Shown one piece after another: positions 46,618 through 50,149 of a DNA stretch of 64,000 nt. The position numbers and the translations under genes are program-made. The stretch lies in NCBI GenBank assembly GCA_965263035.1, contig OZ253580.1, forward strand, positions 4,800,001 to 4,864,000, in the 5' to 3' direction. Every line of letters begins with the position of its first letter. Position 1 is the stretch's first letter. The notes below the pieces were generated by a model that ran no database searches, was not told where the DNA came from, and worked only from the letters and a program-made list of their open reading frames with translations. This DNA comes from Acidobacteriota bacterium (lineage in GTDB: Bacteria; Acidobacteriota; UBA6911; RPQK01; JAJDTT01).

Positions 46618-47448
46618 ATGCAGATTGATCGCCGCCGATTTATCGAAACCGTATCTCGCAGCGCAGCGGGCGCAGGCTTCGTTCCCGCACTCTCGGCGCT
46701 GGGTTGCGCCCCGTCCACCGAATCCGAGTGGAAACCTCTTTTCGACGGGGTTTCACTGAACGGCTGGCACACCAATCCGGAGAAGACCGGTCACGGTACG
46801 GGTGGGCAGTGGGCCGTCGAGGATGGAACCATCACGGGTCAGCAGGACCCCCCCGGCTCGGGCAACGGCGGCATCCTGCTCACCGACGAGAAGTTCATGG
46901 ACTTCGAACTCTCCATCGACATCAAACCGGACTGGGGGGTCTGCTCGGGACTCTTTCTGCGCAGCAACGACAAGGGCCAGTGTGTGCAGATGATGGTCGA
47001 CTATCACGACAACGGCAAAATGGGGTTTCTCTACGGCGAAGGGACCTTCGGCTTCAACTGTGCGACCTTCGAGATCAACGGGGTCCTGGACCAGGACCAA
47101 CGGTTGGTCCGTCTCACGCCCATCGGCGGCCGCTCCTTGGAGGAGGCCGGGTTGATCTCGTCCTGCAAGCCGGAGGAGTTCATCGAGGCCTACAAGATCG
47201 ACGATTGGAATACGGCCCGGGTCCTCGTCACCGGAACCGAACCGCACCTCACCACGTGGATCAACGGCCTGAAGATCTGCGAGTTCGACGGGCCGACCAC
47301 CACCAATCAGAAGTACGTCGACAATCGCCAGGAGATCGTGAACCGGGTCGGCCAACCCGGCAGCATCGCGGTCCAGGTCCACGGCGGCAAGAGTTGGCCG
47401 ACCGGCGCCAAGTGCCGCTGGAAGAACATCCGGATCCGCCCGGTGTAG
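46618..47448 (+). CDS. Tat-exported DUF1080 (3-keto-disaccharide hydrolase-like) protein
   Basis: RRRF leader, LFDGVSLNGW, SGLFLR, WN, IAVQVH, WKNIRIR. Confidence 0.92.
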   Translation: MQIDRRRFIETVSRSAAGAGFVPALSALGCAPSTESEWKPLFDGVSLNGWHTNPEKTGHGTGGQWAVEDGTITGQQDPPGSGNGGILLTDEKFMDFELSIDIKPDWGVCSGLFLRSNDKGQCVQMMVDYHDNGKMGFLYGEGTFGFNCATFEINGVLDQDQRLVRLTPIGGRSLEEAGLISSCKPEEFIEAYKIDDWNTARVLVTGTEPHLTTWINGLKICEFDGPTTTNQKYVDNRQEIVNRVGQPGSIAVQVHGGKSWPTGAKCRWKNIRIRPV

Positions 47449-47539
47449 AGCAAAGGCCGGTCGAGGAGGAGTGGCCGGAGGGGCGACTTTCTTGTCGCCC
47501 ATTGGGAGGGGACTTCCCACCCTTCTTCAAGCGAGATTT

Positions 47540-47604
47540 GACCCCCAGGGGGAGGCCCGGCGAAGGGAGCGTAGCGACCGCAGCCGGGCCTCCCCCTGGG
47601 GGTC
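47540..47604. other. 22-bp perfect-stem hairpin in the IS110 downstream end
   Basis: gacccccagggggaggcccggc ... gccgggcctccccctgggggtc. Confidence 0.8.
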
Positions 47605-47746
47605 CTCTCTGGTACGGTGGTTCCCATTGACCTGGTGAAGCGATCCCCGGGTCCAGTCCATGGTCGCCCGGATGGACATCGCTCTTGAGCTTCTGGAGCG
47701 ACCGCACCAGGGTGGAGCCTACAACGTCCCTCGGTCCAGATCCGGA

Positions 47747-48994
47747 TCAAGCAGCCCGGCGCTGTCTCGCATGATTCGCATCGTATTCCGTCTGGTCTCG
47801 CAACATGGCGCAGGCCACCGCCAGCAGGCGATCGGCAACGGACCGCAGGGCCCGGGCATGGCCGTGGCCGCGCTCCCGCAGGGCAGCGTACTTGGCCTTG
47901 CTGGTGGGGTCGTGTTGCGTGGCCACGCGCGACCAATGATAGGCCGCTTCCCGCAGACGAGGATGAACGGCTTGGCGGCGCACGACCCGGGTGTATTTGC
48001 CGGAACTCCGGGTCACGGGGGCCACCCCGCACAGACATCGCAAAGCGGCGTAATCTCGGCGCCGGATCGCATCGAAGGCTTCCGAGAGCAGGGTGGCCAG
48101 GACGATTCGGCCGATGCCGGGCAGGGAGGCGAGGATCGCCACGTCCCGGCACGGTCCTTGGGGCCCCGGCGTCGACTCGCACCGCTTCTCCCAAGCCCGG
48201 ATCAAACGGTCGAGCTCACGAGAGATGTCCCGGAGTTGGTTCCGCACCACGGCCAGGCGCTCACCGAGACTTTCGATGTGGACCCTCATCGCCTGGGTGG
48301 TGCCCGGGGCGACCGGGATGGAGCGTACCCGCAAGCGACGCAGGACCTCTGGGGCGTCGATGCGCCGGATCCGATGTTGTTTCAACACCTTGGCGACCCG
48401 GCTCGGACGCAGCTTCCGGGCCGCATCCGGTGTCGGGGCCAGCTTCCACACTTCCATCACCCACGGCTCGGCGAGATCCTTGCTCAGGTGTAGGAACTGC
48501 GGATAGTAGCGCCAGAGTTGTTGGCGCAGGCGGTTGAGAAGCCGGGTCCGATCACGGGTCAACTGTGCACCCAGTCTGGACACCTCGCGCAGTTGGATCA
48601 TTTCAGAATCGACCGGTTCGAGCTGTTGCCAGCGATCCCCGTCGGTTCGGATCGCGTCGGCCAGCACCCGGGCATCGCGGCGGTCATCCTTGGCGCCCGC
48701 CGGCGAGAAGCGGTCGCGGAATCGATCCACCTGCCTTGGATTGATGGCATACACGACAAAGCATCGCCCCATCAAAAACTCCACCACCGGACCGTGCGGC
48801 ACTTCAATCGCCACCGAGACGGCCTCCGCTCTCGTCCCCGTCTGCTGCAGGATCCAGTCGGCCATCTGGGCCAGGCCCGAACCGCTGTGCGGGAAGCTGC
48901 GCTGTCCCTGACAGGTGCCTCGCTCATCCACGACGCAGACTTGGTGCGCCTGGGACGCCCAATCGACCCCCACAAACCATTGACTTGGTTTCAT
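47747..48994 (-). CDS. IS110 DEDD recombinase/transposase
   Basis: FVGVDWA, IEVP, KDDRRDA, LPGIG, GVAPVTRSSG; AGGAGG RBS before ATG 48994. Confidence 0.96.
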   Translation of the reverse strand: MKPSQWFVGVDWASQAHQVCVVDERGTCQGQRSFPHSGSGLAQMADWILQQTGTRAEAVSVAIEVPHGPVVEFLMGRCFVVYAINPRQVDRFRDRFSPAGAKDDRRDARVLADAIRTDGDRWQQLEPVDSEMIQLREVSRLGAQLTRDRTRLLNRLRQQLWRYYPQFLHLSKDLAEPWVMEVWKLAPTPDAARKLRPSRVAKVLKQHRIRRIDAPEVLRRLRVRSIPVAPGTTQAMRVHIESLGERLAVVRNQLRDISRELDRLIRAWEKRCESTPGPQGPCRDVAILASLPGIGRIVLATLLSEAFDAIRRRDYAALRCLCGVAPVTRSSGKYTRVVRRQAVHPRLREAAYHWSRVATQHDPTSKAKYAALRERGHGHARALRSVADRLLAVACAMLRDQTEYDANHARQRRAA

Positions 48995-49009
48995 CCCGAA
49001 CCTCCTAGT

Positions 49010-49215
49010 GATTAAATGGATGTCGGGCCGCCGCGATCCGGGCCAATTCCTGTACTGGCATTCGTGGATCCAAACTTCCCACGGGGCCTCCATCGCGGCA
49101 ACCGGCCGGGGCACGAGTCCCCTCCAGGTGCTCTGAGGGCGCTGCGGCTTTATGGTAGCTCCCGGCCGGTTGGCCCTCTTCACCCACCGTGGGTGAAGTC
49201 CCCTAAAGAGCACTC
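49010..49215 (-). ncRNA. Predicted IS110 bridge RNA
   Basis: 5' hairpin, target loop with guides aaagccgc and ggagggg, donor loop with guides gtgggaagt and gtacagga; ends approximate. Confidence 0.8.
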
Positions 49216-49330
49216 GAGAAGGGTACAGGCGGCTTTCTTGCCGCCCACTGGGACAGGCGGTTTTCTTGCCGCCTGCTCTCCGGTGTTGCTTCGGTAGGCG
49301 GGAAGTGTAGAGGGGGGACTGCCGTCCCCC

Positions 49331-50149
49331 CTACCCCCCCCGGAACGGCGGCAAGAAAGCCGCCGCTCCCGCCCCGCCGCGACCCGGCAGCGAGTCCAGC
49401 AGGACCCGAGTGTAGGCATGCCGCGGCTTCCGCAAGACCGTCTCCGTCGGTCCCGCCTCAACAATGCGTCCCCGGCGCATTACGTGCACCCGGGAGGTCA
49501 TGTAGCGCACCAGCGCCAAATCATGGGAGATGAAGAGGATGGCCAGGTTCCGTTCGGACCGCAGCCGCCGAAGAAGGTTGGCGAGGCGGGCCTGGGCCGA
49601 CTGGTCGATTGCGGACGTGGGCTCGTCCGCGATCAGGACCCTCGGTTCGGGTGCCAGGGCCCGGGCGATGCTGACCCGCTGACGCTGGCCGCCCGAAAGT
49701 GCCTTGGGAAACCTTCGGGCCTGGGATTCGTCGATGCCGATGGATTGAAGCAGGGAAAAGGACTCTGCCTGGGCCTGTTTGCGCGTCAGTCCGCGCCATA
49801 CCTGGAGGGCTTCCGCCACCGCCGACCACGCCCGCATCCGGGGGTTGAGGGACGAATACGGGTCCTGGAAGACCATCTGGACCTTCCAGCGCTCGTTCTT
49901 GGGGACGCGCTCTCGCGAGTCGGGCTCCGCGACCTGCTTGCCTTCCCACAACACCGTTCCAAAGGCCGCCGGCTGGAGGCCCACGAGCACCCGCGCCAGC
50001 GTGGTCTTGCCGCTGCCGCTCTCGCCGACCACGCCCACGATCTCGCCTGGATGGAGCGTCAGGCTGGCATCGCGAACGGCCTCGAACGCGTCCGCACCCC
50101 GTCCGAACCGGACCGTGATGTTCCGGCCCTCCAGCAGCGGTCCGCTCAT
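49331..50149 (-). CDS. Peptide ABC ATPase (OppF/DppF-like)
   Basis: GESGSGKT, LSGGQRQR, ADEPT; C-terminus reads through a REP copy. Confidence 0.92.
   Translation of the reverse strand: MSGPLLEGRNITVRFGRGADAFEAVRDASLTLHPGEIVGVVGESGSGKTTLARVLVGLQPAAFGTVLWEGKQVAEPDSRERVPKNERWKVQMVFQDPYSSLNPRMRAWSAVAEALQVWRGLTRKQAQAESFSLLQSIGIDESQARRFPKALSGGQRQRVSIARALAPEPRVLIADEPTSAIDQSAQARLANLLRRLRSERNLAILFISHDLALVRYMTSRVHVMRRGRIVEAGPTETVLRKPRHAYTRVLLDSLPGRGGAGAAAFLPPFRGG

Follow-up and report, generated by a model that had tools for sequence, protein, structure and literature searches.

A stretch of 64,000 nucleotides from the genome of an Acidobacteriota bacterium (assembly GCA_965263035.1, contig OZ253580.1, positions 4,800,001 to 4,864,000), hereafter called the window and numbered from its first letter, contains an insertion element of the IS110 group at positions 47510-49229 of the minus strand. 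The element is 1,720 bp long, including a CC dinucleotide core at either end (left copy 49228-49229, right copy 47510-47511), and its bounds follow from an alignment of four genomic copies with their flanking DNA. Its recombinase gene (47747-48994, minus strand, 415 amino acids) is preceded by an AGGAGG ribosome-binding site (49001-49006, minus strand) and lies between non-coding ends of about equal length, 235 nt on the left and 237 nt on the right; the only terminal repeat is a subterminal inverted repeat of 6-8 bp. Read on the minus strand, the left junction is aaagccg-CC-TGTACCC and the right junction is GGGTGGGAAGT-CC-cctcccaat, the right end (RE) closing with GGGAAGT, and CC borders both ends in all four full copies. 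The surrounding sequence is an array of repetitive extragenic palindromic (REP) hairpins. The element is interpreted here, with a probability of about 0.93, as an intact member of the IS110 group within the IS110 family, which sits in a REP hairpin and encodes a bridge RNA in its left end (LE).

The recombinase

The protein combines an N-terminal DEDD RuvC-like domain (Pfam PF01548, DEDD_Tnp_IS110, 2.8e-35, residues 8-165) with a C-terminal Tnp domain (PF02371, Transposase_20, 7.9e-17, residues 286-369), and with 194.2 bits it exceeds the cut-off of 140 set for the NCBIfam equivalog model NF033542, 'IS110 family RNA-guided transposase'. A sequence search of the PDB gave IS621 of Escherichia coli as the sole match, and a weak one (E 6.6e-8). 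Residues D11, E64, D104, D107, S331 and G332, which do not vary when seven homologues are aligned, correspond to D11, E60, D102, D105, S241 and G242, named as the catalytic residues of IS621 in PMC11208158. By its profile matches, the protein belongs to the RNA-guided transposases of the IS110 family.

Insertion into a REP hairpin

Three REP hairpins stand in tandem here, and the element interrupts the second. On the minus strand, REP unit 1 and the left part of the split unit 2, which provides the left target, occupy 49230-49273, and the right target CCTCCCAAT and REP unit 3 occupy 47482-47509. The left target consists of the loop and the 3' arm of the REP hairpin, with the core as the last two bases of that arm. 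The REP sequence GGCGRCAAGAAARYCGCC occurs seven times in the window, where none would be expected, and 190 times in the genome.

An uninterrupted form of the site was found in the same-genus genome G006, in which the same upstream sequence leads into an intact REP, ...gggcggcaagaaaaccgCCcctcctagc (...aaaaccgCCcctcc), with a single CC. An earlier reading of the window from its sequence alone (the sequence-only reading) had proposed that the element splits a tandem REP array, which it does, and the empty site that it reconstructed matches the G006 REP save for one loop base. The orthologous intergenic region is also free of the element in G001, G002, G003, G004, G005 and G008; REP content differs there, so these six regions are not exact pre-insertion sites, and G006 alone among the same-genus genomes without the element keeps the same REP.

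Two further features of this intergenic region were noted. In G006 (L116, G006:C12:67500-70350) its REP array is longer, and about 2.3 kb of unrelated coding sequence is present, with two open reading frames (ORFs) of 303 and 362 amino acids that have similar N-termini; this is not an IS110 element. In G007 the orthologous REP holds a different member of the subfamily, with 80% protein identity (L107/L014, G007:C2:2463280-2468687), and the stem of that REP differs from the one in the window by a compensatory change (GGCGAC...GTCGCC versus GGCGGC...GCCGCC).

A predicted bridge RNA in the left end

When the left end is read on the minus strand, its minimum free energy (MFE) fold shows a 5' hairpin (49178-49198) and two stem-closed loops. 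The target-binding loop is closed by a perfect stem of 12 bp (5' strand 49161-49172, 3' strand 49099-49110), and the donor-binding loop by a stem with strands at 49085-49099 (5') and 49030-49044 (3'). The 5' side of the target-binding loop carries the left target guide (LTG) AAAGCCGC (49144-49151), which reads in the sense of left target positions 1-7 and of the first core C; its 3' side (49116-49125) carries the right target guide GGAGG, a core-pairing GG and the handshake ACU, together the reverse complement of AGT-CC-CCTCC. The donor-binding loop carries the left donor guide (LDG) GTGGGAAGT (49074-49082), an exact copy of the final 9 nt of the right end before the core, and the right donor guide (RDG) GTACA with a core-pairing GG and the handshake AA (49047-49055).

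The hairpin, the target-loop stem and the four guide words (the right target word as GGAGGGG, 49119-49125) lie exactly where the sequence-only reading had placed them, and the hairpin and both loops that it predicted are recovered by the fold. Two of its guide matches call for refinement. AAAGCCGC, given as the match to the left target, covers positions 1-7 and only the first core C; the next base (49143) is A, which mismatches the second core C; GTACAGGA, given as the match to the right donor arm, is present at 49048-49055, but its final A occupies the handshake position, where it pairs with the donor's own T. The layout agrees with the bridge-RNA rules set out in PMC11208160, according to which a left-end guide RNA upstream of the gene is the IS110-group arrangement and bridge RNAs are predicted for 85.7% of IS110 elements.

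Matching of guides and flanks within the genome and genus

The genome is a single contig of 6.2 Mb, which was searched for further copies by BLAST and tblastn. It contains four full copies, A (the window copy), B, C and D, with DNA identities to A of 100, 95, 83 and 83%, and a remnant, E; no further IS110 paralogue was found by tblastn in this genome. The 415-aa ORF is intact in all four full copies (protein identity 97.3% between A and B, 99.0% between C and D, 81% between A and C). Copies A and B have LTG AAAGCCGC and left flank aaagccg-CC, copies C and D have LTG AATGTCCC and left flank aatgtc-CC, and remnant E has LTG AAAGTCGC and left flank aaagtcg-CC, while the right flank CC-CCTCC and the right target guide GGAGGGG are constant in the four full copies. 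This matching of guide and flank within one genome is the strongest single test of the interpretation. The sequence-only reading had claimed that the element is programmed against its target and had named copies at unrelated sites as an outcome that would count against this; the outcome favours it, since copies C and D do lie at a different left flank, with the LTG altered to match it.

The target of C and D belongs to another family of hairpin repeats, GGGGGACAAGAATGTCCCCC, of which the genome has 22-24 copies (e.g. G000:C1:1647705 and 2170319), and related forms of this hairpin repeat, GGGGGACTAACAGTCCCC, are the targets in G001, where three copies each have LTG ACAGTCCCC at acagtcc-CC. Locus L013 has LTG AAAGTCCCC at aaagtcc-CC, and a remnant in G004 has LTG AAAACCGC at gaaaccg-CC together with an altered right target guide, GGAGCGG, which would read CC-GCTCC, the commonest REP tail. 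One genus thus presents six versions of the LTG and two of the right target guide at matching REP variants, with the donor loop fixed.

Remnant E (G000:C1:2558568-2558740) retains LE positions 1 to about 165, comprising the 5' hairpin and the target-binding loop with AAAGTCGC, both intact, and the left donor guide, followed directly by the REP tail CCTCCCAAT. Its breakpoint falls at an internal ...CAGTGTCC that shares GT-CC with the true right end, and for this reason it may have arisen either through a microhomology deletion or through an internal deletion that the recombinase made at a pseudo-site. Free AAAGTCGCCCCTCC sites that its guide would fit number 33.

Covariation in the wider family

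A scan of genome contigs yielded 14 loci, and a scan of metagenome contigs the best 80 of 499 relatives, at 51-63% protein identity. Of the 98 loci scanned (L005-L011 were omitted), 66 loci with 67 left ends have CAGTACAG and CTGTAC within 260 nt upstream; the CC core and a left end starting with TGTAC are found in all 67. When the LTG was compared with left target positions 1-7, core excluded, in 63 unique pairs, the mean for cognate pairs was 5.87 of 7 matches, against 4.17 for non-cognate pairs, and in 10,000 permutations the cognate value was never attained. The right target (positions 1-5) and the antisense 3' side of the target loop agree likewise at 4.60 of 5 positions versus 3.23 in 42 unique pairs (0 of 10,000 permutations), a set that excludes 17 of the 67 left ends without an RE candidate, L049 and L065 (for which the RE search landed at an internal or unrelated place), two with less than 6 nt of flank, and four duplicates. 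The 3' side has the form N5-7, GG (core), AC, and this AC would pair with the terminal GT found in all right ends, as expected of a target-loop handshake guide. Covariation of guides with flanks and ends, within the genome and across the 67 relatives, supports the interpretation given in the sequence-only reading, and the element may, as that reading suggests, be a programmable recombinase.

The RNA structure was assessed in an alignment of 54 distinct left ends (A3), from which seven were excluded (six with large insertions, and the second L049 copy). RNAalifold gave 41 consensus pairs, and in 24 both partners have changed; in the closing stem of the target-binding loop (helix 2) 8 of 13 pairs have changed on both sides, and in that of the donor-binding loop (helix 5) 11 of 13. 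The consensus leaves 96.0% of alignment cells paired, compared with 88.9% in shuffles, and sliding the partner strand by 1-3 columns lowers the figure to 35-41%; none of 500 shuffles reached any of the five measures used. The compensatory counts are better evidence than the proportion of cells paired, because the structure was derived from the same alignment. A TGT that follows the LTG of copies C and D was considered as a guide for the left junction and rejected, as (C)TGTGCC forms a conserved inner stem in the family alignment.

Comparison with known systems

The element resembles IS621 (E. coli, IS110 group, PDB 8WT6) in the two domains of its protein and in the D-E-D-D and S-G residues. 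According to the published accounts of IS621, the two also share a left-end bridge RNA with 5' hairpin, target loop and donor loop; pairing of the 5' loop sides with the bottom strand and of the 3' sides with the top strand, core included; insertion into REP sequences; and a target-loop handshake guide that pairs with the donor. The promoter that is rebuilt in IS621 where RE and LE join may have a counterpart here. In sequence IS621 is a distant relative (E 6.6e-8 over two short aligned stretches); its recombinase has 326 amino acids and its core is CT, against 415 amino acids and a CC core here. The right target guide is 5 nt plus core here and 4 nt in IS621. Further differences from IS621 are that the LTG here mismatches the second core base, that the first handshake base of the donor loop pairs with the element's own donor and not with the target, and that the right non-coding end is as long as the left and contains a 65-nt hairpin.

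Targeting of REP sequences is described for IS621 and for ISPpu9 and ISPpu10 of Pseudomonas putida. The latter two, likened here by description only, are multi-copy IS110-family elements that insert into REP or stem-loop intergenic repeats; at ISPpu10 sites a target-encoded stem-loop is reported to lie 5' of the paired bases, and in the present case the loop and 3' arm of the REP hairpin form the left target. The IS1111 group, guided by seekRNA, shares the DEDD recombinase and RNA-guided site choice, and differs, in the published outline, in having its guide RNA in the right end and subterminal inverted repeats of 7-17 bp; the guide RNA here is in the left end.

The element is thus a well-supported new example of a known system and not a new kind of system, because it would work like IS621 and shows those defining features of the family that could be tested. 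The sequence-only reading had proposed a further IS110 ortholog with a CC core, and the protein-family matches and the bridge-RNA layout of the left end agree with that. No description of the element or of its CC-core subfamily was found in the literature by searches that were not aimed at one, and the catalogues of PMC11208160 may list the subfamily.

Programmable tools for DNA insertion, excision and inversion are being built from bridge recombinases. As reported in 10.1101/2025.05.14.653916, 72 orthologues were screened in human cells and 18 were active. The present element adds a distant CC-core orthologue with four guides and one handshake guide that are directly readable. The natural retargeting series represents, as a product of evolution, the modularity that engineers exploit. 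The picture of how IS110 elements function is unchanged by these findings, to which the CC-core, TGTACC-left-end subfamily and its retargeting series within a genus add useful detail.

Proposed mechanism

The left end would encode a bridge RNA of about 190 nt, made up of the 5' hairpin, the target-binding loop and its donor-binding counterpart. Each loop's 5' side, AAAGCCGC for the target and GTGGGAAGT for the right end, would pair with the bottom strand, because it has the same sense as the DNA to the left of the CC core; the 3' sides, antisense to the core and the DNA to its right, would pair as GGAGG-GG with CC-CCTCC and as GTACA-GG with CC-TGTAC. By homology to IS621, four recombinase subunits, in two dimers with one loop each, would hold the loops. 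Top strands would be exchanged at the CC core through a phosphoserine intermediate and a Holliday junction would then be resolved, so that a circular copy is inserted with no duplication beyond the shared core. On this model the window copy would be transcribed, would form circles, would be catalytically competent and may be active at present.

The rejoined ends and the right end

Joining of RE to LE in the circle would place a -35 hexamer 17 bp from TACCCT and so switch on expression of the bridge RNA and the recombinase. The two hexamers lie at opposite ends of the integrated element, both on the minus strand: the -10-like TACCCT at 49220-49225, overlapping the right donor arm TGTACC, and the -35-like TTGAAG at 47525-47530, which comes to stand 17 bp from TACCCT only after joining. 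The sequence-only reading had predicted just this arrangement. The joined sequence is TTGAAG-17-TACCCT in copy A and TTGACA-17-TACCCT in copies B, C and D. TACCCT agrees with the -10 consensus at three of six positions; it is present in 36 of 67 related left ends (TACC in 65 of 67), and 35 of 38 unique right ends have TTG at one constant position (TTGAC in 21 of 38). No sigma-70-like site was found in the integrated locus. These findings fit the circle-promoter model of PMC11208160, in which a promoter is rebuilt across RE-LE, and the junction of the present element may function in the same way.

The right end contains a near-perfect hairpin of 65 nt (47540-47604, minus strand), the pairing of which is preserved in copies C and D by a compensatory G/C swap. 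No T-run follows it. In the window copy it is flipped, being identical at 62 of 65 positions to the reverse complement of the hairpin in copy B and at 50 of 65 in direct comparison. The subterminal inverted repeat is formed by ACCCTTCT (LE positions 6-13, 49217-49224) and AGAAGGGT in the right end (47510-47522); it measures 8 bp in the window copy and 6 bp in copies B to D, and lies inside the spacer of the putative junction promoter. A scan of positions 47000-49700 against Rfam 15 (E<=10) returned only microRNA-like matches, on the right-end hairpin and far below gathering scores.

Part of the stretch is contained in 20 of the 24 public sequencing runs listed, of which X1, X6, X15 and X17 were examined, all as Logan contigs. 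In the RNA library X15 one contig spans 47667-49041 and two span 49074-49183, which, being contigs, cannot show transcription. Many joints in the run contigs skip from near 47499-47509 to 49228-49346; they were read as REP-to-REP look-alikes and not as empty sites, because their sides, 18-27 nt long, lie inside REP units.

Contrary evidence and alternative explanations

Several observations weigh against the interpretation as an intact element that encodes a bridge RNA. The fold of the left end is only 2.0 standard units more stable than shuffles (z-score -2.0), and the Rfam scan of the window gave no family for it. The X15 contigs may derive from DNA, and no circle joint of RE to LE was found among the contigs of the four runs. 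In copy A the -35 hexamer is weaker than the TTGACA of B to D. The family survey left out 32 of the 98 loci for lack of the CAGTACAG and CTGTAC anchors, possibly owing to cut contigs or to divergence. The LDG shifts with the RE terminus in at least six versions (GTGGGAAGT, GTGAGGAGT, GTGAAGAGT, GTGGGGAGT, GTAGGAAGT and GTAGGAGGT), an agreement that arises partly by construction, since the RE candidates, located for 50 of the 67 left ends, were found through an exact 8-nt word of the donor loop (the LDG), and L014 shows one mismatch between the two. The RDG matches the right donor and core but cannot covary with them, being invariant in all 67 left ends. Single mismatches between LTG and flank occur in L012 (AAAGCCGC at aaagtcg) and L014 (AAAGTCCCC at aaagtcg-CC). 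In copies A, B and E and in L012 the base after AAAGCCGC, or its equivalent, is an A facing the second core C, whereas the LTG of L013, G001 and most relatives matches both core bases; finally, the donor-loop handshake base of the window copy pairs with the element's own donor.

Some of these points would be expected if the element, though a genuine member of the IS110 family with a bridge RNA and readable guides, were in its window copy an immobile relic that transposes inefficiently. The window copy has not moved recently, to judge by its DNA identity of just 95% to its nearest copy, B; it has the TTGAAG hexamer and the flipped hairpin where B to D have TTGACA and the other orientation; its LTG mismatches the second core base; its handshake A pairs with its own donor's T, a configuration reported to have lowered insertion by IS621; and just two perfect free sites, AAAGCCGCCCCTCC, are left in the genome. 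Set against this, the ORF is intact with every catalytic residue present, all stems and guides are intact, and the same core mismatch and handshake base are found in B, E and L012 at different sites, which argues that elements with both features have transposed repeatedly. A relic is considered unlikely.

It is very improbable that the element instead belongs to the IS1111 group, with a guide (seek) RNA in the right end in the region of the 65-nt hairpin. The long right non-coding end (237 nt, against 235 nt on the left), the 8-bp subterminal inverted repeat ACCCTTCT shared by LE and RE, and the compensatory change that maintains pairing in the hairpin would suit such an element, but the four guide segments and both covarying loops are in the left end, upstream of the gene, and no flank-matching words were noted in the right end, of which no systematic search was made.

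That the matches between left end and flanks are chance, or a captured REP fragment rather than guides, has a negligible probability. In favour of it, the genome is GC-rich and filled with REPs, and when LE positions 11-235 were shuffled 20,000 times with dinucleotides preserved, GGAGGGG alone turned up 2,846 times. The other three guide words turned up singly 60, 17 and 42 times, and at least two of the four coincided in only 21 shuffles and all four in none. Further evidence against it is that the LTG follows the left flank through six versions in a single genus, that none of the 10,000 permutations did as well as the cognate pairs, and that the matches follow a strand-specific pattern (5' sense, 3' antisense) on unpaired loop sides closed by covarying stems.

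The handshake and possible retuning

Among the relatives, the target-loop handshake AC(U) pairs with (A)GT of the donor, and in 44 of 57 unique pairs the first handshake base of the donor loop is Watson-Crick complementary to left target position 7; a G-T pair accounts for six more. The seven misfits are exactly the clade of the present element (L001-L004 and L012-L014), in which an A faces G or C and pairs with the donor's T. In IS621 an analogous handshake change, G166A, is reported to have strongly lowered recombination. The balance of insertion and excision is set, according to PMC13626964, by handshake pairing before versus after top-strand exchange, with one pair before and three after in wild-type IS621; in the window copy the count is one before and two after, from which a weaker bias towards insertion would be expected.

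It is conceivable, though doubtful, that the bridge RNA of this clade has been naturally retuned through its handshake and, in the A/B/E lineage, through the core mismatch of the LTG, and that the orphan loop of remnant E could retarget intact copies in trans. By the rules of IS621, the retuned handshake would weaken the drive to insertion and ease excision, and the remnant loop could act in trans because loops of different RNA molecules can share one synaptic complex. The odd handshake offers a natural test of the published rule on the balance of insertion and excision.

Structural variants among the relatives

Several relatives depart from the usual arrangement. The metagenome contig L049 contains two related copies head to tail, at positions 759 and 2482 and thus 1,723 nt apart, and each is bordered on its left by another copy's right end (ggtggggagtcccc followed by CC); such a tandem array would retain an RE-LE junction in the chromosome. 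L016, L068 and L104 are larger relatives: in L016 RE lies 2,886 nt from LE, and in L068 and L104 the left end is lengthened, close to its 5' end, by an additional insert of about 85 nt.

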